Origin: a virus
Taxonomy: Duplodnaviria; Heunggongvirae; Uroviricota; Caudoviricetes
Virus record (IMG/VR): IMGVR_UViG_2721755663_000004
Length of the DNA: 32,882 nt
Direction: 5' to 3' (one strand)
Below the pieces are notes generated by a model. That model saw only the letters and a program-made list of their open reading frames with translations. It did not search any database and had not been told where the DNA came from. Below are positions 1 through 32,882 of the stretch, in pieces. The stretch's first letter is position 1; the number at the start of each line of letters is the position of its first letter. Both the position numbers and the translations under genes were made by a program.

Positions 1-585
1 CTATTCGATAATGGGTACTGTTGGCCATTCAATATCCGGTGCAGTTGTTGTATTAACACGGTTCAGCAACACCCGATACTTTTTCCAGGCTTCCAGCAAC
101 AAGGTTTCTTCCTCCGTTGCGATTTCCAGATCTACAGCATCCTGAAGTGGCGCAATATGCTCACTGGCTACCTGCATCAGGCTGTTTTTTGTTTCTTCTG
201 CCTCCCGGATCCGGAACAGTTTTTCTGCTTCCGTATCCTTCACCCAGGCTGTGCCGTTCCACTTCTGATATTCCCCTCCCGGCGGCAACCAGGTAACATT
301 TTCCGGTAACGGACCGAGTTCAGAAATAAATAACGCGTCGCCGGAAGCCACGTCATAAACCGTTTTACCCCGATGGTCTTCAACGAGATGCCACGATGCC
401 TCATCACTGTTGAAAACAGCCACGAAGCCTGCCGGAATATCTGGTGGTGCAATATCGGTACTGTTTGCTGGCAGACCTGTATGAGGCGGAATATATGCGT
501 CACCTTCACCAATAAATTCATTAGTTCCGGCCAGCAGATTATAAATTTTTATGGTCCGTGCTTGTTCACTCATTCTGAATGCCAT
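1..585 (-). CDS. tfa: Tail fiber assembly protein (lambda Tfa-like), 194 aa
   Basis: ORF translation [44 protein letters not shown]... is near-identical to my recollection of lambda Tfa (194 aa); stop TAG at 1-3; start overlaps the stf stop. Confidence 0.9.
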
Positions 586-3612: not shown

Positions 3613-4212
3613 TCAGAATTTATAACCGACACCCACGATGAAACCGTCAGTGCGCCAGTCGCCACTGCCGGAGCCTTCATAAGCAATATCAATGGCCACG
3701 GATTCGGTCGGGTTAAACTGCACGCCAGCTCCCCACGCCAGAGACGTGTTGCTGTGGCGACCGTCATCACTTCCGGTCAGCACGTCGTGCGTTTTCCCCT
3801 TGTTGTCAGTTACGCGGAGATAATCCCCGGAGAAAGTCGACACACGGCTGTAAGACACACCCGCCATCGCATACGCGCTGAACCATTCATTCACGCGCAC
3901 AGACGGCCCCGCCATCACGCTGAACCAGCGGTTACGCACGGAATCTTCATGCCAGCGGATATCGCTGTAACGGGTCAGCTGGCGATTCTTGTCTCCTGCA
4001 TAGCTGAATGACGTCACCAGCCCCAGTGTGTCCGTAAACTCATAACGGTATTTCACGTTAATCCCGTTCAGATCATCGCTGCCGGGAACGTTCGTCGAGG
4101 CATGAAGATACCCCGCGCTCAGCGTGGACTGATGTTCAGATGCCCATGCAGACGCACCGGATACGGCCAGACAAATAGCTGCGGACAAAATGGCTGCATA
4201 AAGTTTACGCAT
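3613..4212 (-). CDS. lom: Outer membrane protein Lom (Ail/Lom/PagC family), 199 aa with signal peptide
   Basis: Translation MRKLYAAILSAAICLAVSGASAWASEHQSTLSAGYLHASTNVPGSDDLNGINVKYRYEF...GVGYKF matches lambda Lom; beta-barrel-like alternating pattern, C-terminal aromatic residue; GAGAGG RBS upstream. Confidence 0.9.
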   Translation of the reverse strand: MRKLYAAILSAAICLAVSGASAWASEHQSTLSAGYLHASTNVPGSDDLNGINVKYRYEFTDTLGLVTSFSYAGDKNRQLTRYSDIRWHEDSVRNRWFSVMAGPSVRVNEWFSAYAMAGVSYSRVSTFSGDYLRVTDNKGKTHDVLTGSDDGRHSNTSLAWGAGVQFNPTESVAIDIAYEGSGSGDWRTDGFIVGVGYKF

Positions 4213-18757: not shown

Positions 18758-22438
<3,681 letters not shown>

Positions 22439-22464
<26 letters not shown>

Positions 22465-22984
22465 TCAGCAACCCCGGTATCAGTTCATCCAGCGCGGCTG
22501 CTTTGTTCATGGCTTTGATGATATCCCGTTTCAGGAAATCAACATGTCGGTTTTCCAGTTCCGGAAAACGCCGCTGCACCGACAGGGGGATCCCGTCGAG
22601 AATACTGGCAATTTCACCTGCGATCCGCGACAGCACGAAAGTACAGAATGCGGTTTCCACCACTTCAGCGGAGTCTCTGGCATTTTTCAGCTCCTGTGCG
22701 TCGGCCTGCGCACGCGTAAGTCGATGGCGTTCGTACTCAATAGTCCCTGGCTGGAGATCTGTCTCGCTGGCCTGCCGCAGTTCTTCAACTTCCCGGCGCA
22801 GCTTTTCGTTCTCAATTTCAGCATCCCTTTCGGCATACCATTTTATGACGGCGGCAGAATCATAAAGCACCTCATTACCCTTCCCACCACCCCGCAGAAC
22901 GGGCATTCCCTGCTCCTGCCAGTTCTGAATGGTACGGATACTCGCGCCGAAAATGTCAGCCAGCTGCTTTTTGTTGACTTCCAT
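22439..22984 (-). CDS. Nu1: Terminase small subunit Nu1, 181 aa
   Basis: MEVNKKQLADIFGASIRTIQNWQEQGMPVLRGGGKGNEVLYDSAAVIKWYAERDAEIENEKLRREVEEL... matches lambda Nu1 (winged-HTH N-terminus). Confidence 0.95.
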
Positions 22985-23200
22985 TGTTCATTCCACGGAC
23001 AAAAACAGAGAAAGGAAACGACAGAGGCCAAAAAGCCCGTTTTCAGCACCTGTCGTTTCCTTTCTTTTCAGGGGGTGTTTTAAATAAAAACATTAAGTTA
23101 CGACGAAGAAGAACGGAAACGCCTTAAACCGGGAAATTTTCATAAATAGCGAAAACCCGAGAGGTCGCCGCCCCGTAACCTGTCGGATCGCCGGAAAGGA
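22985..23200. other. cos packaging site (cosB, cosN, cosQ); cosN 12-nt cohesive-end sequence at 23162-23173
   Basis: Sequence upstream of the Nu1 start is the reverse complement of the lambda left end as I recall it; aggtcgccgccc at 23162-23173 is the reverse complement of GGGCGGCGACCT; lambda right-end-like sequence continues beyond. Confidence 0.8.
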
Positions 23201-23372
23201 CCCGCAAAATGATAATGATTATCATCTGCATGTCACAACGTGCATCTACGCCATCAAACCACGTCAAATAATCAATTATGACGCAGGTATCGTATTAATT
23301 GATCTGCATCAACTTAACGTAAAAACAACTTCAGACAATACAAATCAGCGACACTGAATACGGGGCAACCTC

Positions 23373-23606
23373 ATGTCAACGAAGAACAGAACCCGCAGAA
23401 CAACAACCCGCAACATCCGCTTTCCTAACCAAATGATTGAACAAATTAACATCGCTCTTGAGCAAAAAGGGTCCGGGAATTTCTCAGCCTGGGTCATTGA
23501 AGCCTGCCGCCGGAGACTGTGCTCAGAAAAAAGAGTTTCTCCTGAAGCAAACAAAGAAAAGAGTGACATTACTGAATTGCTCAGAAAACAGATCAGACCA
23601 GATTGA
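23373..23606 (+). CDS. ylcI: Small DUF3950-type protein (YlcI-like), 77 aa
   Basis: MSTKNRTRRTTTRNIRFPNQMIEQINIALEQKGSGNFSAWVIEACRRRL... matches my recollection of K-12 DLP12 YlcI and the ORF at the lambda right end; C-terminus differs. Confidence 0.6.
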   Translation: MSTKNRTRRTTTRNIRFPNQMIEQINIALEQKGSGNFSAWVIEACRRRLCSEKRVSPEANKEKSDITELLRKQIRPD

Positions 23607-23664
23607 AGCAATTTAGATAATCGTGCAGACTACGCCCCCCTCATATCACATGGAAGGTTTATCT

Positions 23665-24075
23665 ATGGATCAGGTAGTCATTTTTAAACAAATATTTGAT
23701 AAAGTTCGAAACGATTTAAACTATCAATGGTTTTATTCTGAGCTAAAACGTCACAATGTCTCACATTACATTTACTATTTAGCCACAGAGAATGTTCATA
23801 TTGTATTAAAAAATGATAATACAGTGTTATTAAAGGGCCTAAAAAACATTGTGTCTGTCAAATTTTCAAAGGATAGGCATCTTATAGAAACGACCTCTAA
23901 TAAGCTGAAATCCAGAGAGATCACATTTCAGGAATACAGAAGAAACCTTGCTAAAGCAGGAGTTTTTCGGTGGGTTACAAATATCCACGAACAAAAAAGA
24001 TATTACTATACCTTTGATAATTCATTACTCTTTACTGAAAACATACAGAGCACATCACAAATGTTTCCACACTAA
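23665..24075 (+). CDS. ybcV: DUF1398-family protein (YbcV-like), 136 aa
   Basis: [58 protein letters not shown]... resembles DLP12 YbcV; ATG at 23665; upstream in-frame ATGs at 23623 and 23650 are possible alternatives. Confidence 0.6.
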
Positions 24076-24377
24076 ACCATAACGTCCGGTTTCTTCTACC
24101 CCTGCACCGGACTGGCTGACATGAAGAGCAACCCCGCGTTCAGTTGACGCGTTAATAACCCGGTGTGCATCGTTTTTGATTATTCCCGCACACTCACGCA
24201 GAAGGAATTCCCCGTCGGGCTACGGTCATGGTTAATGCGGGAATACGGCGACGATACAGCGCATGATGTGTCAGGCTTGAATACCTTTATCCGTTAAAAG
24301 GGATATCAGTTAAGTTATCCCGTGCAGGGTATAAGCCATTATCAAGCCCCCCGTAGATAGGCTTTGTAATGACATCT

Positions 24378-24902
24378 TCAATTAATCAGCAGTTCAGGCT
24401 GTGTCACCTGCAAGATGTATTCATGCTCGACAGCCAGGACACGCTTCTCTTTCTTCCGTTCGTTCATTAACCGACTGCCGATCGTACCTTTCAGCTTTGA
24501 GCGTGTTTCTTTGATGGCGTAGCGGTGCTGCATTTCTTCGCCAATTGCCATGCGGCGGCTCAGTTGTTCTGCCATCCAGTTGAATGCTGCGATATAGCTC
24601 TCCTTGATTGCCGCAGCAGCTTTCCCGGTGAACCCCATCACAACCATGATCCAGCCATCTTTCGTCAGGCTGTACATCGGGCGAACCTTGCCCTGCTCAT
24701 CGATATAATCAGCCGACGCAAAATTGCGTTGGCTAAACTCACGCGAGCAATCAGCCTTAACCTGCTCGATTTTCCTGAGAACATCACCGTGTCGCTTGCC
24801 GAAGTACTTGGCAATTTTTCTGGATGTGGTAACGACCTCTCCGTTTTTGGCTTGCACCATTTCTCGGAAGTCGAAGGCTGGAATAACTGAATGATTATTC
24901 AT
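24378..24902 (-). CDS. rha: Rha-family phage regulatory protein, 174 aa
   Basis: MNNHSVIPAFDFREMVQAKNGEVVTTSRKIAKYFGKRHGDVLRKIEQ... carries the Rha N-terminal signature (GKRHxxVLR); ATG at 24900-24902. The 81 upstream codons of the track ORF look non-coding. Confidence 0.7.
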   Translation of the reverse strand: MNNHSVIPAFDFREMVQAKNGEVVTTSRKIAKYFGKRHGDVLRKIEQVKADCSREFSQRNFASADYIDEQGKVRPMYSLTKDGWIMVVMGFTGKAAAAIKESYIAAFNWMAEQLSRRMAIGEEMQHRYAIKETRSKLKGTIGSRLMNERKKEKRVLAVEHEYILQVTQPELLIN

Positions 24903-25044
24903 AGCGTCTTTACCTTTTAGAAAGTGAGCCTGTCTCACAGAAAAGCCGCCCGAGAGAGGTCGCCACCTATAACGGCATTTCTCAGGCTCGCTTACTGAAA
25001 GGCTCTCGTTAATATGCGCGTGAGATGCGCTGTGAAATTCAGAT

Positions 25045-25069
25045 ATAAAAAGCCCCGCGAATGCGAGGC
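25045..25069 (-). terminator. Candidate rho-independent terminator downstream of Rz/Rz1
   Basis: Minus-strand GCCTCGC-ATTC-GCGGGGC (one G-U pair) followed by TTTTTATAT; plus coordinates 25052-25069 with the A-run at 25045-25051. Confidence 0.4.
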
Positions 25070-25244
25070 TAAATCCTGGTATTTGTAATGAACTGGCTCT
25101 TATCTCAACGCAGCCCCTTACTGCGCGCCAGATGCTCAATATCAAGCATCAGCAATGAGATGTTTAATCTGGATTTACTCCAGAAGTGATCACCACCCTG
25201 TCTACAGAGCCAGATGTGAAGGATGATGAGTAAAATTATCGCTA

Positions 25245-25712
25245 TCATCGAAGGCATTGCGTCCTAATGTATTCCTGAAGCGTTCTCAGTGCTGTTTGGT
25301 CGCGGATAATTCCGTCCCGGATATCGAGAACGTTTCGTCCAGCAACTGGAGAGAGTTCGACGGTGGCATCATTGCCCATGCCGGAGGCGCTGGAGGTTTC
25401 GGCAGAGGATGGCACAGGGCATTTTCCTTTGACGAGCACCCTGCCACCATTATCAAGCTTCCGCAGAAGAGCATCATTTTCAGCTTTCGCATCAGCTAAC
25501 TCCTTCGTGTATTTTGCATCGAGCGCAGCAACATCACGCTGACGCATCTGCATGTCAGTAATTGCCGCGTTCGCCAGCTTCAGTTCTCTGACATTTTTGT
25601 CGCGCTGGGCTTTGTAGGTAATGGCGTTATCACGGTAATGATTAACAGCCCATGACAGGCAGACGATGATGCAGATAACCAGAGCGGAGATAATCGCGGT
25701 TACTCTGCTCAT
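25245..25712 (-). CDS. Rz: Spanin inner-membrane subunit Rz (i-spanin), 155 aa
   Basis: [79 protein letters not shown]... matches lambda Rz in the N-terminal two thirds; start overlaps the R stop (ATGA). Confidence 0.85.
25286..25492 (-). CDS. Rz1: Spanin outer-membrane lipoprotein Rz1 (o-spanin), embedded in the +1 frame of Rz, 68 aa
   Basis: [23 protein letters not shown]... with lipobox VAGC and proline-rich [11 protein letters not shown], entirely nested within Rz as in lambda Rz/Rz1. Confidence 0.7.
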
Positions 25713-26206
25713 TGTTTCCCCCACAAACAGACTTCACGCTCAATCTCACGGCGAGTCATCAGTCCTTTCCATTGATTACCGCCAGCGTATGTCCAGCGCC
25801 GTAGCTGATCACATGCGCCTTTGATATCACCGTGGTTTATTTTGCGAAGAAGCGTCGATGTTCTGAAATTGCCAGCACCCACGTTGTAGACGAACGAGTA
25901 AAGAGCGCCGCGCGTTGTTTCCGGTATATCAACTTTTATGTACGGGTTAATTTGTCTGGCGACCGTGGCAAGGTCTTTATTCAGGAGGGCTTTGCATTCT
26001 GCTTTGGTATACGTTTTACCGAGCATGATGTCTTTTCCTGTATGCCCGTGACATACAGTCCATACACCAACAATATCTTTGTATGGTATGTAGCTGACAC
26101 CTTCCAGACCATCGTTACCACTTGGGCCAGTGATTAACACTGATGCTATAGCAATTGCTCCGCCACCAATAGCAGCAGCAACGGCTTTTCGTAATGATGG
26201 AGGCAT
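25709..26206 (-). CDS. R: SAR endolysin (phage-21-type lysozyme R, T4-lysozyme fold), 165 aa
   Basis: Gly/Ala-rich N-terminal signal-anchor-release segment [20 protein letters not shown]; catalytic E-x8-D-x5-T pattern ([16 protein letters not shown]); matches the phage-21 / DLP12 RrrD-type endolysin. Confidence 0.9.
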
Positions 26207-26421
26207 TATTCACCTCTCGCAGCCTTGCGCTTATCTTCTTTAATCTTGAAATAAAGGTTTGTCAGGTACGTCAGCAGGCCAAATACCAGGCTACCCAGCA
26301 CTCCAATTGCCGCCCACTGTGAGGGCGTGACTTTATCTAGCAGCTGTAAAAACCAGTACCCGGCACTACCTGCTGAGGTGCCATAGGCGACACCCGTTGT
26401 TAACTTATCCATGGATTTCAT
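26206..26421 (-). CDS. S: Pinholin (phage-21 S-type holin), 71 aa, dual-start motif
   Basis: [71 protein letters not shown]; two TM segments, charged C-terminus, Met1/Met4 dual start; matches S21 / EssD. Confidence 0.9.
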
Positions 26422-26530
26422 AACCCCACCTCGCAGACAAAGCGGGTGTAAATTGAGGGAATACTACGAAACGTAACAGACTCGGAGTCAGTGAATAACT
26501 CAGGTATTGGGTTATCAGCTAATATCGAGA

Positions 26531-26566
26531 CTCAAAAAATGGAAAAACCCGCTCGACGGCGGGTTT
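26531..26566 (-). terminator. Strong rho-independent terminator on the late-gene strand, about 110 nt upstream of S (tR'-like)
   Basis: Minus-strand AAACCCGC-CGTCGA-GCGGGTTT followed by TTCCATTTTTT; 8-bp stem at plus 26545-26552 / 26559-26566. Confidence 0.55.
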
Positions 26567-26749
26567 AAGCTGTGTGACGAAGTAACCACTCTTAACAGCA
26601 TAACCAATTTTTTACGTACGTAAACCACTAAATGATATTTGCGAGAATGCTACCGAGTATTGAAAACACTACTACAAATACATAAGCAAATCTCAACAAA
26701 TAACCAACAAATAATTTCCAGTGTTATTTTTAGCCGGTTTAAATTGAAC

Positions 26750-26790
26750 CTTCAAATTATAGAGCACTTATAAATAACAGCCATTAATAT
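26750..26790 (-). promoter_or_regulatory. Candidate late promoter (pR'-like): perfect -10 TATAAT on the minus strand, weak -35
   Basis: Minus-strand TATAAT at plus 26756-26761, about 190-220 nt upstream of the tR'-like terminator (lambda pR'-tR' spacing is about 200 nt). No convincing -35. Confidence 0.25.
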
Positions 26791-26993
26791 AAATTGGCTA
26801 ATAGATTTATTTTTATTCAGCCAAGAGCCATGAATAGGATTCGATAGAAAAAAGTTCAGATAAAAATAGAGATCTACTTCACAAATCAAACGAGAAACCA
26901 AAACTTACATCTTGAAATAATCACATTGATTAGATGAATATTTATCGCGCAGTGACATCATTTTTTAATAATAGTTCAAAAAAAGGGCTCACG

Positions 26994-28091
26994 ATGAAAA
27001 AATTAACAGTGGCAATTTCTGCTGTAGCTGCATCAGTACTGATGGCGATGTCTGCTCAGGCAGCTGAAATTTATAATAAAGACAGTAACAAGCTGGATCT
27101 GTACGGGAAAGTTAATGCTAAGCACTACTTCTCCTCTAATGATGCAGATGATGGTGATACTACTTATGCCCGTCTTGGCTTCAAAGGTGAAACCCAAATC
27201 AACGATCAACTGACTGGTTTCGGTCAGTGGGAATATGAATTCAAAGGCAACCGCGCTGAATCTCAAGGTTCCTCCAAAGATAAAACCCGTCTTGCCTTCG
27301 CTGGCCTGAAATTCGGTGACTACGGCTCCATCGATTACGGCCGTAACTACGGTGTAGCATACGACATCGGTGCGTGGACTGACGTCCTGCCAGAATTCGG
27401 TGGTGACACTTGGACTCAAACCGACGTGTTCATGACTCAACGTGCAACTGGTGTTGCAACCTATCGTAACAACGACTTCTTTGGTCTGGTTGATGGTCTG
27501 AACTTTGCTGCTCAGTACCAAGGCAAAAACGATCGTAGCGATTTCGATAACTACACCGAAGGTAACGGTGATGGCTTCGGTTTCTCTGCTACCTATGAAT
27601 ACGAAGGATTCGGTATCGGTGCAACTTATGCGAAATCTGATCGTACCGACACTCAGGTTAATGCAGGGAAAGTTCTTCCTGAAGTATTTGCTTCCGGTAA
27701 AAATGCAGAAGTTTGGGCCGCAGGTCTGAAATATGACGCTAACAACATTTACCTGGCCACTACCTATTCTGAAACCCAGAATATGACTGTATTTGCTGAT
27801 CACTTCGTTGCTAATAAAGCTCAAAACTTCGAAGCTGTTGCACAATATCAGTTCGATTTCGGTCTGCGTCCGTCCGTTGCTTACCTGCAATCTAAAGGTA
27901 AGGATCTTGGAGTATGGGGCGATCAGGACTTAGTCAAATATGTTGATGTAGGTGCAACCTATTACTTCAACAAAAATATGTCTACTTTCGTTGATTACAA
28001 AATCAACCTGCTTGACAAAAATGACTTCACTAAAGCACTCGGTGTAAGCACTGATGACATCGTTGCTGTAGGTCTGGTTTACCAGTTCTAA
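26994..28091 (+). CDS. nmpC: OmpC/OmpF-family general porin (NmpC / phage PA-2 Lc-like), 365-aa precursor
   Basis: [23 protein letters not shown] signal peptide then [24 protein letters not shown]... ending ...VAVGLVYQF; AAAGGG RBS before ATG 26994; orientation opposite to the late genes. The track ORF has a 20-codon upstream extension. Confidence 0.9.
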
Positions 28092-28228
28092 TCTGATTAC
28101 GAAAAAGATATGTTGCGGGAGGCGTTGCCTCCCCAACATATAAGTGGCTCCCTCAAGCCACTTCCTTTAGGAGCACAACCTTGCTTCTAACTATATAAAC
28201 CTTCTGTTATATATTACCCTTTATTTTT

Positions 28229-28255
28229 GGGGGCGTCTCAACGCCCCATTTTTAA
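28229..28255 (+). terminator. Rho-independent terminator downstream of the porin gene
   Basis: GGGGCGT-CTCA-ACGCCCC (7-bp stem) followed by ATTTTTAATAATTTTT on the plus strand; two weaker hairpins precede it (28117-28133, 28142-28161). Confidence 0.5.
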
Positions 28256-28280
28256 TAATTTTTAGTAAACAATTGGCATA

Positions 28281-28664
28281 TTAATTAGAGTTATTAACAA
28301 CGATATCCATCTCTAACCGGATATCTAATGCCATTAACATCCCTTCAATTATACCCTCAGCCTTCTGTAACCTTTTCCCGATATAACCATCAGAGCAGCA
28401 ATGCTTACCTGCCAGTGACATGAATGTCATACCGACTACATAATAATCTACTAATAAATCATGCAAATCGCTGTTGTTCTTTTTCAGACGGGCCATGCAC
28501 CCGCAAATGATCATCGCGTCATCGTCACAACATTGTGGGCGAGATTTTACTTTTGAAGGAATTAATCCCTTAAAACCGGCGGCAATGGACGACCAGGTCA
28601 CATCTTCATGATTATTAGCCGCCCACGCTCCCCAACGCTCAAGAACCATCTGAATATCACGCAT
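28281..28664 (-). CDS. Q: Late-gene antiterminator Q (short 21/82/DLP12 QuuD-type), 127 aa
   Basis: [60 protein letters not shown]... with Cys cluster (zinc-finger-like); position upstream of the lysis cassette. Confidence 0.8.
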
Positions 28665-28749
28665 CAACTTACTCCACAAAACTCAGACCAGAACGCCAAT
28701 TACAAGCAAAAATCAACAAAACAGTATTAGTTGATTGTTATCTCTGACT

Positions 28750-28890
28750 TCATACTCCTGCTCCTGTCAGTGTTTTGGCGTAATTCTTCAGTATTCGGTA
28801 ATCGGTCAAAACAGAACCGGGGAAACGATATAAGCGCAGACGCCCCCAGCGGTGGCGAAGAAGTTCTGCCATATTAAACTCAAACATCAT
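28750..28890 (-). CDS. ylcG: Small protein YlcG-like, 46 aa
   Basis: Hand-translated [46 protein letters not shown]; ATG overlaps the rusA stop (ATGA); not in the ORF track (below its length cutoff). Confidence 0.55.
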
Positions 28891-29249
28891 TCATTCCCCA
28901 TTTCGGTGATGGTCAGTTCCAGCCTCCCACCTTTGGTAACAGGCATCTTCACAACGCGGTAATCAACGACCTGAGCATCATCCATCCAGAAACCTGCTTT
29001 AGTGAGTGCGTCAAAAGCGGCTTTTTGCAGATTATCCAGGTCACGGCGACGGCGATCCGGCATGTGGCACTCAATACGGATTTTCACTGGCATAGCCAGG
29101 CCGATATCCAGCATGGAGCCTTTGATGATTCGGGCGACGTTATCGCGGTATGCCTGCCCTTCTGCGCTGATGTGCGTGCGCCCTCGATTATGGCGGTAGT
29201 AGCGGTTATTGCTCGGCGGCCAGGGTAGTGTGATGTGGTAAGTATTCAC
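28887..29249 (-). CDS. rusA: Holliday junction resolvase RusA, 120 aa
   Basis: [120 protein letters not shown] matches E. coli RusA. Confidence 0.9.
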
Positions 29250-29536
29250 GCCTTAATTACCCCCTCTTTCAGCCAGATAACCTGCGTTCTCGCCATACCT
29301 TCCAGCGCGCATTCTTTTGCATATCCAGCGTCAACAAAATGCGTGCGGCGGTCGATTTCGTCGTGGCAGGCAGAACATGCAATGGTGGCAATCAGGTCTG
29401 GCGGTTTGGTACCGGTGCCACACAATCCAGCCAGCCGGATATGTGCCAGTACAGACGTTTCAGGGTTGCCATTACATATGCCAGGGATTCTTACCTGGCA
29501 TTCCCGACCACGCGCTGCTTTTCTCAAATCAGCCAT
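29246..29536 (-). CDS. ybcO: YbcO-like putative nuclease (DUF1364), 96 aa
   Basis: [64 protein letters not shown]... ; Cys-rich; ATG at 29534-29536. The track ORF extends 13 codons upstream. Confidence 0.75.
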
Positions 29537-29699
29537 GATTCCTCCTTGCTGCCAGTCGCAACCATTTTTTATCAACCAGGCTGGCGGTATACCCTAGCAG
29601 TGTTGGTATTTCGGATGGCTTCAGCTCAGGCTTACGCTTACGACGATTTGGTACTCTGTAGATGTGTCCGTTCATGACCCGAATAAGCGGTGTAGCCAT
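29529..29699 (-). CDS. ninE: NinE-like small protein, 56 aa
   Basis: Hand-translated [56 protein letters not shown]; resembles lambda/DLP12 NinE (RKRKP...WLR); start overlaps the ybcN stop (TAATG). Confidence 0.5.
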   Translation of the reverse strand: MATPLIRVMNGHIYRVPNRRKRKPELKPSEIPTLLGYTASLVDKKWLRLAARRNHG

Positions 29700-30154
29700 T
29701 ACGCCTCCTGCTTGTCGCGCAGCAGCTGGAACTCGCAGCTCTGCGGAATAGTCAGGTGGCAGCCAATATTCATCGCCCAGGCTTCAACCTTACACGGGAA
29801 GACATACATCTCTCCGGTATCAAGATCGGAGGTATGGCGTAACGACTGGATCGTAGTGATTTCGCCGGTTACGACATCAACCAGGTCCTTGGTTTCATAA
29901 CCGAGGTATGTGTGTTTGAGAGCATCTTTCACCCATGCTGCAGTAGCGAACGATTTCCCCCTGCTTATGAGGTATTCACTGATTTCGCTGTACCACATGT
30001 GGCTAAGTGCATTCTGGGAAAGACTGCGTCTCTCGCGCCACGGTTTAAGCACCATGCGAAAGCATTTGCCGTCCTCCAGATAAGGCTGGATCTGCTGACC
30101 GATAGCGGTGAAGTTACCACGATGCAATTTGATGCCATCTTGTAGGAGGTTCAC
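29699..30154 (-). CDS. ybcN: YbcN-like nin-region protein, 151 aa, GTG start
   Basis: (M)[57 protein letters not shown]... resembles DLP12 YbcN; GGAGGTGA RBS before GTG at 30152-30154. Confidence 0.75.
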
Positions 30155-30343
30155 GATTCACCTCCGCAGAGGTCAAACGCTGGATGCAAAAAATCGCAGG
30201 TGCATTTCTGCATCTGTGACAGCAAAAGAGAGTTTAGATTGTATGTGCGCATAAACGTCCCCGTTTAGCGCAGAAGTCACCGATGTTGTTCAGGCTCCGG
30301 TGACATTATTATTGCTGGTTGATTATGGAAAATCAAAGGTAGA

Positions 30344-30826
30344 TTAATTTAATAATCCTTGGAGAAATCTCACGCACCACCTCAATAGTTGCGCTTGCTC
30401 TTGAGAATCAACAAAAAGATAAGCTTCTTTATTTCCGTGGAAAAGGTTATTTCTTATCCTTATAACTATCTTTAATACTGTAGACATGGTGTTTAGATCT
30501 GTTGCTGCGTCATTTTGAAGTCCATTAACTATTCCCCGCCTATCTCTCTCTCGACCGACACAGAGGGCGTCAAGTCTTTCCTGCGCATCCCCGTTCAAAA
30601 TGTATCTCTGCTTAAAATCGTGAAAAAGTTCGTTGGGCACCTTTATCCCGGCGTCAAGTAACGTTCGCGCATAATTTAAACTGTCTTCCCCCTTAGCAAA
30701 GCCACCAAAAAAACTTTGCTCGACCCTAGGAAAAATCATGCAGAATTGAAGATAAACATCAATCAGTTCATCAGATGGAGGCTCCGATAAATTAAGTAAC
30801 CGCTGCAGTCCTTCTGCACTTATCAT
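30344..30826 (-). CDS. Hypothetical 160-aa protein with HEPN-like Rx4H(G) motif; candidate RNase/toxin-type cargo
   Basis: Intact [31 protein letters not shown]...[20 protein letters not shown]...; R-NNLF-H about 37 aa from the C-terminus resembles the HEPN/HepT RX4HXY motif; low-GC by eye; ATG overlaps the stop of the upstream small ORF (ATGA). Not a lambda or DLP12 backbone gene I recognise. Confidence 0.55.
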
Positions 30827-31071
30827 TTTTCACCTTCCTGCTTAAGATGTCGAGGAGTGGATGCCTTGGGCAGCGCGATGCTCTGCTCGCGGTAATGTCG
30901 TGGCCGCTCCAAAAAATAGTCCCGCAAATGCTCAGGCTGCTCACGCATCACCGCTTCGGCAATAACCGGTATATTAAGGCGCTCTTTGTAGGTAACTCAG
31001 GAGACAGCAAGGTCAACGTTAACCTTCTCGCGCTCTTCTTGTGTTTTAGCGGCAATATTCTGCTTCGACAT
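30823..31071 (-). pseudogene. 82-codon ORF interrupted by an in-frame TGA (30997-30999); either a nonsense-disrupted partner gene or a 41-aa protein starting at Met 30946-30948
   Basis: Same frame reads MSKQNIAAKTQEEREKVNVDLAVS[61 protein letters not shown], with its stop overlapping the start of the HEPN-like gene. Confidence 0.3.
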
Positions 31072-31082
31072 GGCGTTACGTT

Positions 31083-31404
31083 TTACTCCTTTTTGGGTGC
31101 ATACACGTTGTTTATCCGTTCAATATGAATAGTTACATCCGGGCTTTCTAAGAATAAGAAGTCAATCAAATGACCAATGAGAATGCAGGCATCATTAATA
31201 GAGGACCTTGTGACTTTAATCCCTCCATGACTGCCGTGATTCCCCAACCACTTTAACGCCATGAATGCATCTTTATTTGGTCCCAGTTTATCTGAATAAT
31301 ATGTGATTCTTTCATGCGTAGAAAGACGTATTATCTTGCCTTTAACTGTTTTCTCTCTTGGTACATCAAGACTATCAAGCATCATCTCCAGTATGGTTCT
31401 CATG

Positions 31405-31430
<26 letters not shown>
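31083..31430 (-). pseudogene. 5'-truncated gene fragment (115 codons); N-terminal 9 codons and GTG start supplied by the IS911 left end
   Basis: ORF ...HMRTILEMMLDSLDVPREKTVKGKIIRLSTHERITYYSDKLGPNKDAFMALKWLGNHGSHGGIKVTRSSINDACILIGHLIDFLFLES...; upstream reading frame runs into the IS terminal sequence TGAAGTGGTTTACTG beginning at about 31405; low-GC. Domain assignment (possibly DUF4145-like) is from memory and tentative. Confidence 0.45.

Positions 31431-32882
<1,452 letters not shown>

Follow-up and report, generated by a model that had tools for sequence, protein, structure and literature searches.

The window analyzed here is the whole 32,882-nucleotide stretch of the IMG/VR virus record IMGVR_UViG_2721755663_000004 (Caudoviricetes), a lambda-like prophage, and the element in question is a porin gene, nmpC, at positions 26994..28091 on the + strand. 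It lies between the late antiterminator gene Q (28281..28664) and the holin gene (26206..26421). An earlier reading of the DNA, made without database searches and called here the sequence-only reading, had placed a complete and intact OmpC-family porin at this site, on the strand opposite to both neighbors. The flanking genes are identified by the Pfam family PF06530 for Q and by a profile match for the holin, and both are indeed encoded on the - strand. The porin frame runs from ATG to TAA over 365 codons, and its inspection for a frameshift or an internal stop brought up neither. The Pfam profile Porin_1 (PF00267) covers the encoded precursor from end to end (profile positions 1-337 of 337, E-value 4.7e-157, 523 bits against a cutoff of 23.7), and the NCBIfam "porin OmpC" subfamily model gives a score of 529.8, above its cutoff of 484, which bears out the family assignment. 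With the NCBIfam equivalog models for PhoE and OmpF the porin scores under their cutoffs. In the chromosome of Escherichia coli D9, the Prokaryotic Genome Annotation Pipeline (PGAP) annotates a "porin", WP_000737280.1, that corresponds exactly to 26994..28091. A longer open reading frame (ORF) of 385 amino acids beginning at an ATG at 26934 was considered as the gene and rejected, because homology, annotation and the probable transcription start site agree on the start at 26994.

The precursor carries the signal peptide that had been claimed for it. Residues 1-23 (26994..27062, +) are basic, then hydrophobic, and end in AQA, as is typical of signal peptides, and residue 24 (AEIYNKD...) aligns with residue 1 of the mature OmpC and OmpK36 chains in crystal structures, which places the cleavage site after AQA. 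The mature start AEIYNKD/AEVYNKD is common to the porin and to OmpF and OmpC of K-12, the constriction-loop motif PEFGG is located at residue 133, and the final residues, YQF, supply the C-terminal aromatic residue by which Bam recognizes such proteins. OmpC and OmpK36 are the closest solved structures (about 342 residues aligned, E-value 1e-137), and the product is predicted to be a 16-stranded trimeric β-barrel that conducts small solutes. With OmpC, OmpF, PhoE and OmpK36 it shares family, length, mature N-terminus, the PEFGG motif and the C-terminal aromatic residue. Its identity is 62.6% to K-12 OmpC and 57.7% to OmpF; by these values it is a paralog of the housekeeping porins and not a copy of one of them.

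A much closer relative is the nmpC of the K-12 prophage DLP12, which is disrupted by IS5, as the sequence-only reading had stated. As K-12 reference we took the DLP12 nmpC pseudogene after removal of IS5B together with its 4-bp duplication, which restores a gene of 1,098 nt. The window porin and the reconstituted K-12 NmpC are the same at all 365 residues, and the four nucleotide differences between the genes are all synonymous. The insertion sequence is inserted after codon 346 in both K-12 and phage 434B, and the same site, the target CTAA at 28030..28033 (+), is empty in the window. CTAA has also been given as the IS5 target in nmpC elsewhere (PMC11677980). The layout is the same in DLP12 and in the window, with Q (quuD) followed by a 189-nt spacer, nmpC, a 572-nt region and essD, and the whole Q-to-holin segment differs from that of K-12 by 17 substitutions in about 2.46 kb. 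The two prophages differ in that K-12 nmpC is a pseudogene through IS5B and its CTAA duplication, whereas the window copy is uninterrupted; in addition, the window prophage has lambda-type head and tail genes, is located at the ybhC/att-lambda side, and has a Rha gene at the place of DLP12 borD. The nmpC/Lc arrangement that had been recognized from the sequence holds more widely, the gene order being that of DLP12, 434B, mEp332 and more than 30 other phages.

Transcription signals and 3' untranslated region of nmpC

The gene has a ribosome-binding site of its own, as had been noted, AAGGG at 26983..26987 (+), 6 nt before the ATG, and the record of phage 434B annotates a ribosome-binding site at the equivalent place. 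The probable promoter and regulatory region of nmpC (-199..-1; 26795..26993, +) is recognizable by its identity to K-12, with 199 of the 199 nt upstream of the ATG the same as in the K-12 PnmpC region. The region upstream of the porin has about 29% G+C, compared with about 50% in its neighbors. In K-12, deletion of -199..-1 abolishes nmpC promoter activity, and the combined evidence of deletion, terminator insertion and promoter replacement is that these 199-210 bp hold an active σ70 promoter, PnmpC, whose transcription start site was put at a "G" by 5' rapid amplification of cDNA ends (PMC11677980). PnmpC is activated by CRP and repressed by OmpR, IHF and MprA, and there is control by small RNAs (sRNAs) too (PMC11677980). 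Candidate elements of PnmpC in the window are a -35 hexamer TTGAAA (26912-26917), a -10 hexamer GAATAT (26936-26941) and a transcription start at the G of 26947 or 26949.

The 3' untranslated region (3'UTR) of nmpC, 167 nt at 28092..28258 (+), is the equivalent of the sRNA IpeX, an element that went unnoticed in the sequence-only reading. IpeX is a 167-nt sRNA of DLP12 that is made within the porin transcript (PMC12197685, PMC5069750), and OmpC and OmpF are both lowered by it (PMC12197685, PMC5069750, PMC3333887, PMC7177473). The 189-nt spacer between Q and nmpC is the same as that of K-12 at 188 positions, and its 28092..28258 portion folds with a free energy of -62.4 kcal/mol (z = -8.9 against shuffled controls). 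The likeness to IpeX consists in the same position, the same length of 167 nt from the stop codon to the terminator end, a sequence at most one base off that of K-12, and strong structure; by analogy, the window copy would repress OmpC and OmpF. A search of the region at the Rfam gathering threshold gave no match, Rfam being without an IpeX family, and a search of the region by E-value gave chance-level matches only, namely Trp_leader (20.8 bits, cutoff 41) over the tR'-like hairpin described below and a snoRNA. The prophage sRNA svsR, known from a preprint, was considered as a relative of the locus and set aside as irrelevant, as it is located in the cI gene of a different prophage.

The spacer contains two intrinsic terminators of opposite orientation. 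On the + strand, the sequence GGGGCGT-CTCA-ACGCCCC followed by ATTTTT (28230..28253, -13.9 kcal/mol) forms the terminator of nmpC and IpeX. A terminator downstream of the porin had been claimed and does exist, but about 140 nt beyond the stop codon, the hairpin directly after the stop codon being without a T-run on the + strand. On the - strand, a strong intrinsic terminator with a 15-bp stem followed by CTTTTT (28100..28141, -21.3 kcal/mol) probably ends the Q transcript. The + terminator is thus near the stop codon of Q, and the - terminator is 9-16 nt from the stop codon of nmpC. Because the terminators are crossed in this way, the convergent 3' ends of Q and nmpC would be complementary over about 150 nt (about 28100-28258). 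Lambda has an anti-Q RNA that dampens Q expression, and a comparable coupling may be imagined here: transcription of the porin and IpeX, or read-through of their terminator into Q, could dampen Q, and transcription of the Q operon could destroy both IpeX and the nmpC mRNA. We regard such a coupling as quite improbable; if true, the antisense overlap would couple porin conversion to the lysis decision.

We are confident that the unit as a whole is the intact nmpC allele of DLP12/PA-2-type prophages together with IpeX, and that it is a self-contained moron with a ribosome-binding site, signal peptide and terminator of its own and, probably, its own promoter.

The probable late promoter and the mosaic junction in Q

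The sequence-only reading held the porin gene to be antisense to late transcription. This is probably wrong, since the homolog of the mapped late promoter PR' is found on the holin side of the porin, at 26624..26590 (-). In Stx phages, the transcription start site of PR' was determined by differential RNA sequencing (Sy et al.) to be 258 nt upstream of the 3' end of the terminator tR', and the late leader has an RNase E site, GU/AUU, at +173 (PMC7547250). Counting 258 nt back from the end of the tR' T-run in Sakai Sp5 leads to a start 22 nt after the stop codon of Q. That start is preceded by TTTACG-N16-TATCAT, and the sequence GTATT at +172 reproduces the published cleavage site. The window is 77-78% identical to this Stx PR' region from 26625 to 26543 (-). 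The probable PR' of the window (essDp; 26590..26624, -) has the same -35 hexamer, TTTACG (26624-26619), a -10 hexamer TATGCT (26602-26597) in place of TATCAT, and the same start-site 13-mer TAAGAGTGGTTAC, with transcription starting at about 26590. In the late leader, a tR'-like hairpin with a T-run (26535..26566, -; -12.0 kcal/mol) is homologous to the first hairpin after Stx PR'. It follows the PR' start by about 25-50 nt and precedes the ATG of the holin gene by 120 nt, the distance from start to ATG being about 170 nt.

Of the 16 loci examined, 14 have a single copy of the 13-mer TAAGAGTGGTTAC, on the late strand, and these carriers are the Stx phages, cdtI, DLP12 of K-12, 434B and every porin-bearing phage examined. 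We consider it likely, from this homology, that PR' is located between the porin and the holin gene. The porin is convergent with Q and yet would be outside the late operon, because the PR' homolog is on the holin side. An attempt to locate the promoter by conservation among nine porin-bearing phages did not discriminate, the intergenic regions being 91-100% conserved. In other phages, PR' and its hairpin form an isolated island of 56-83 bp in otherwise unrelated contexts, as in cdtI and the Shigella phages SfII and SfIV; the island of cdtI precedes a string of orf55, a DNA methyltransferase gene and a holin gene.

Several observations weigh against this placement of PR'. The -10 hexamer of the window, TATGCT, is further from the consensus than the TATCAT of Stx phages. 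The 13-mer is missing from the region between Q and the end in phage 1H12 and also from the 5.4-kb IdasGreatGrand locus, and because the Q of 1H12 is 88% identical to that of the window and yet is without the 13-mer, the type of Q is no strict predictor of PR'. Finally, the strong - terminator in the Q-nmpC spacer could in principle be tR'. It is conceivable, although in our judgment unlikely, that PR' directly follows Q within the 189-nt spacer and that Q-modified RNA polymerase reads antisense through the porin gene to the holin gene, as the sequence-only reading implied. Such an order would agree with lambda and the Stx phages, in which PR' directly follows Q (PMC7547250); the hairpin and T-run at 28141..28100 (-), with -21.3 kcal/mol, would be a possible tR'; the eye can make out a weak TTGAGA-N19-TAATAT; the 9-10-mer ATATAACAG is common to the spacer and to the Q-blc spacer of 1H12; and the alternative PR' motif is absent in 1H12. 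However, the sole homology to the mapped PR' in the window, comprising the hexamers, the start and the first hairpin, is at 26624..26540, past the porin. A scan finds no promoter in the Q-nmpC spacer, the spacer has no significant similarity to the Stx PR' region, and the promoter fragment of published DLP12 reporters was defined with respect to a start upstream of essD. A PR' inside the spacer was also tried as the principal interpretation and dropped, only 9-10-mers being shared in a motif comparison with Stx PR' and the 1H12 spacer. We prefer the placement of PR' on the holin side.

The Q antiterminator encoded next to the porin is of the QuuD type (127 amino acids; 28281..28664, -) and is a distant relative of the Q21 structures. 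Its identity to Q of Stx phages is 79%, and both this similarity and that to the Q of 1H12 stop exactly at residue 120 (...RLEMD), beyond which the C-terminal tails are unrelated. At the nucleotide level, homology to the Stx phages reaches as far as 28305 and is taken up again only beyond the porin, at 26625..26543 (-), which leaves a block, 26626..28304, that is absent from the Stx-phage arrangement. The block contains a 7-codon alternative tail of Q, the 189-nt spacer with IpeX, nmpC and the A+T-rich region upstream of it. It takes the place of the last 24 or so codons of the Stx-type Q, and the Stx phages share both of its flanks. Direct or inverted repeats, such as transposition would leave, were not found flanking the block, which looks like a recombinational mosaic segment. 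Also not found were tRNA genes after Q, as they occur in Stx phages.

The same joint has been used by other cargo. In phages 1H12 and IdasGreatGrand, a gene for the Blc lipocalin is found on the opposite strand directly beyond Q, the homology of Q likewise ends at codon 120, and the terminator that closes the Q-blc spacer is almost the same as Stx tR'. Because blc of 1H12 and IdasGreatGrand sits at the same junction, codon 120 of Q looks, on these alignments, like a recurrent mosaic joint for envelope-related cargo. Blc resembles the porin in being opposite-strand, envelope-associated cargo beyond Q. The stx genes of Stx phages are located just beyond Q too, but in the sense orientation, downstream of PR'-tR' and dependent on Q, whereas the porin probably has its own promoter and lies upstream of PR'.

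Prophage context and variation of the porin

The lambda-like prophage of the window has genes for terminase, portal, tape-measure protein, J, Lom and side tail fibre, and it adjoins ybhC. The 10.9 kb that were compared (22000-32882) are 100% identical to the chromosome of the dog isolate E. coli D9 (NZ_CP010152.1). The lysis cassette consists of a P21-type holin (26206..26421, -), an endolysin (lysozyme) of the signal-anchor-release type (25709..26206, -) and Rz (25245..25712, -), all recognized by profile matches and by PGAP. In the D9 annotation, the nin genes are followed by a DUF4145 gene and then by transposase and integrase remnants. The remnants, as given by PGAP, are a frameshifted and truncated transposase pseudogene of ISEc52, of the IS3 family (31477-32464, +), and an N-terminally truncated tyrosine integrase (32466-32882, +), after which comes the host gene ybhC. 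Repressor, N, O and P genes are no longer present in this prophage. This is a defective prophage, in which the IS3-family element and integrase fragments have taken the place of the immunity and replication region, and to speak of a lysogen, as the sequence-only reading did, overstates what is a remnant that is not inducible, the early region being gone. With the immunity and replication region lost, the porin unit has become in effect a resident gene of the chromosome, a situation similar to that of DLP12.

Other genes of the window may be recorded here. Flanked by J and the side tail-fibre gene, a full-length Ail/Lom gene (3613-4212, -) encodes an outer-membrane β-barrel, the second cargo of this kind in the prophage. 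Between the small terminase gene (nohD) and the lysis region is a cargo-like island on the + strand with a YlcI/YnfO family gene (23373-23606) and a DUF1398 (YbcV-like) gene (23665-24075). A gene for a Rha-family regulator (24378-24902, -) is found just downstream of Rz, where DLP12, 434B and 1H12 have bor on the opposite strand; no bor gene was found in this prophage. The Rfam family IS009 (RF02111) is matched over its full length at 44-242 (-) with 230.5 bits against a gathering score of 117, and the match falls inside an ORF at 1..585 (-) beside the side tail-fibre gene. PGAP annotates a pseudogene similar to HolE, the θ subunit of DNA polymerase III, with an internal stop at 30823-31071 (-), and adjoining it is an ORF of 160 amino acids (30344-30826, -) without a Pfam match.

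The porin unit is widespread. At least 80% of the Q-porin-holin segment is covered by 36 phage records, with identities of 99.3-99.4% for phage 434B (the DLP12 region including IS5) and 99.2% for phage mEp332. A comparison of the porin DNA with complete E. coli genomes gave best matches of 99% identity or more in 919 replicon records and of 95-99% in 662 others, 1,581 in total. Automatic annotation of the gene varies between "porin", "OmpC", "OmpD" and "hypothetical", phage copies are often recorded as OmpD, OmpC or NmpC, and IpeX is never annotated automatically.

Nine copies of the gene from phages and prophages were compared in segments of 50 nt. Conservation per segment is 94-100% in the flanks and in the first half of the gene, and blocks in the second half fall to 66-87%. 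The porins of mEp332, Turner, PhiR70_1, ev243, ev099, ev207, ev017 and Perceval occupy the same slot in the same orientation, with flanks that are 95-100% identical. Three allele classes, 92-100% identical, can be distinguished: one of 365 amino acids, the NmpC class, which includes the window, mEp332 and Turner, and two of 360 amino acids that are about 92% identical to it. With the exception of one substitution in Turner, the first 148 precursor residues are invariant among the phage alleles. The differences are confined to four or five short blocks in the C-terminal 60% of the protein (27400-28060 in the window), clustered around residues 181-190, 219-232, 268-272 and 340-350. By analogy with the topology of OmpC and OmpF, the variable blocks would be in the external loops L4-L8, and the pattern looks like loop-specific diversification or cassette-like recombination. 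Variation in surface loops is what would be expected if the protein is expressed at the cell surface and is exposed there to phages, colicins or antibodies as selective forces.

Predicted expression of nmpC and its meaning for the outer membrane

As a self-contained moron, nmpC would be transcribed from the prophage by the regulated σ70 promoter PnmpC without phage induction. The precursor would be exported by Sec and cleaved after Ala23, and the Bam complex would insert the mature protein into the outer membrane as a trimeric barrel of 16 strands that adds a further non-specific channel. IpeX, transcribed together with the porin as its 3'UTR, would lower the synthesis of OmpC and OmpF post-transcriptionally. 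Expression would thereby swap the major porins of the host for the phage-borne one, with a change in permeability and with surface receptors for other phages and colicins removed or altered. The porin-carrying block would at the same time come between Q and the promoter on which Q acts, PR', a short distance upstream of the holin gene. The precedent is the Lc porin ("protein 2") of phage PA-2, which is reportedly phage-borne, beside the late-gene region, and followed by a 3'UTR identical to ipeX. Lc is reportedly made in lysogens, with the loss of OmpC and a swap of receptors, the work in question being that of Schnaitman 1975, Blasband 1986 and Castillo-Keller 2006. PA-2 is an inducible phage, whereas the prophage of the window is defective.

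Three other explanations of the porin frame have to be weighed. That 26994..28091 is open by chance or belongs to a decayed pseudogene is practically out of the question: the sole point in its favor is the disruption of the K-12 and 434B copies by IS5, which makes pseudogenes of them, and against it stand the full-length match to a profile hidden Markov model (E-value 4.7e-157), the unbroken frame, a product equal to reconstituted NmpC, and the annotation of a complete coding sequence by PGAP. It is hardly more probable that the porin is the core chromosomal ompC/ompD locus, merely beside prophage DNA instead of being phage cargo. Homologs are named "OmpC" or "OmpD" in some annotations; however, the gene is between Q and the holin gene within a contiguous lambda-like prophage, it travels with plaque-forming phages, and its identity to K-12 OmpC is just 62.6%. 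There is finally a possibility, somewhat unlikely in our estimate, that nmpC is intact but silent, held "quiescent" by OmpR, IHF, MprA, H-NS-like silencing of the upstream region with its 29% G+C, and sRNAs, with no effect on the outer membrane under ordinary conditions. The intact nmpC of E. coli B was reportedly described as "quiescent" (Prilipov 1998), several repressors (PMC11677980) and the sRNA RybB (PMC3333887) are reported to act on PnmpC or nmpC, and the upstream region is A+T-rich. In contrast, PnmpC of K-12 is the main driver of IS5 transposase expression in glycerol minimal medium (PMC11677980), and ipeX RNA is measurable across 20 clinical isolates (PMC7177473). The frame, moreover, is intact and nearly invariant in hundreds of genomes while the loop blocks diversify, and the combination of an intact frame and loop diversification argues for selection on an expressed surface protein.

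Some points weigh against the favored account of the unit in addition to the quiescent gene of E. coli B. The expression of nmpC in D9 is a prediction from sequence, and no strong promoter came up ahead of the porin in a simple scan for consensus elements. For IpeX, there is no simple complementarity (PMC12197685), and sources disagree on whether it depends on Hfq (PMC5069750, PMC7177473, and others). Because PnmpC has several repressors and the E. coli B gene is described as quiescent, expression of nmpC is likely to be conditional. The change in the outer-membrane porin repertoire that the sequence-only reading foresaw is accordingly plausible but conditional.

Nothing essential in the feature is new: nmpC/Lc, the Q-porin-lysis layout and IpeX are all known already, and intact copies of the gene are common. 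Knowledge of nmpC/Lc goes back to the 1970s-1980s and that of IpeX to 2006. What is added is architectural only: the probable position of the cargo between Q and PR', the recurrent junction at codon 120 of Q, and the crossed 3' ends of Q and nmpC. The position of cargo between Q and PR' at a recurrent junction is a testable detail of lambdoid genome architecture. For the strain that carries the prophage, the unit means the potential to produce a fourth general porin, accompanied by an sRNA that reduces OmpC and OmpF, and this bears on its permeability to antibiotics and on its sensitivity to phages and colicins.

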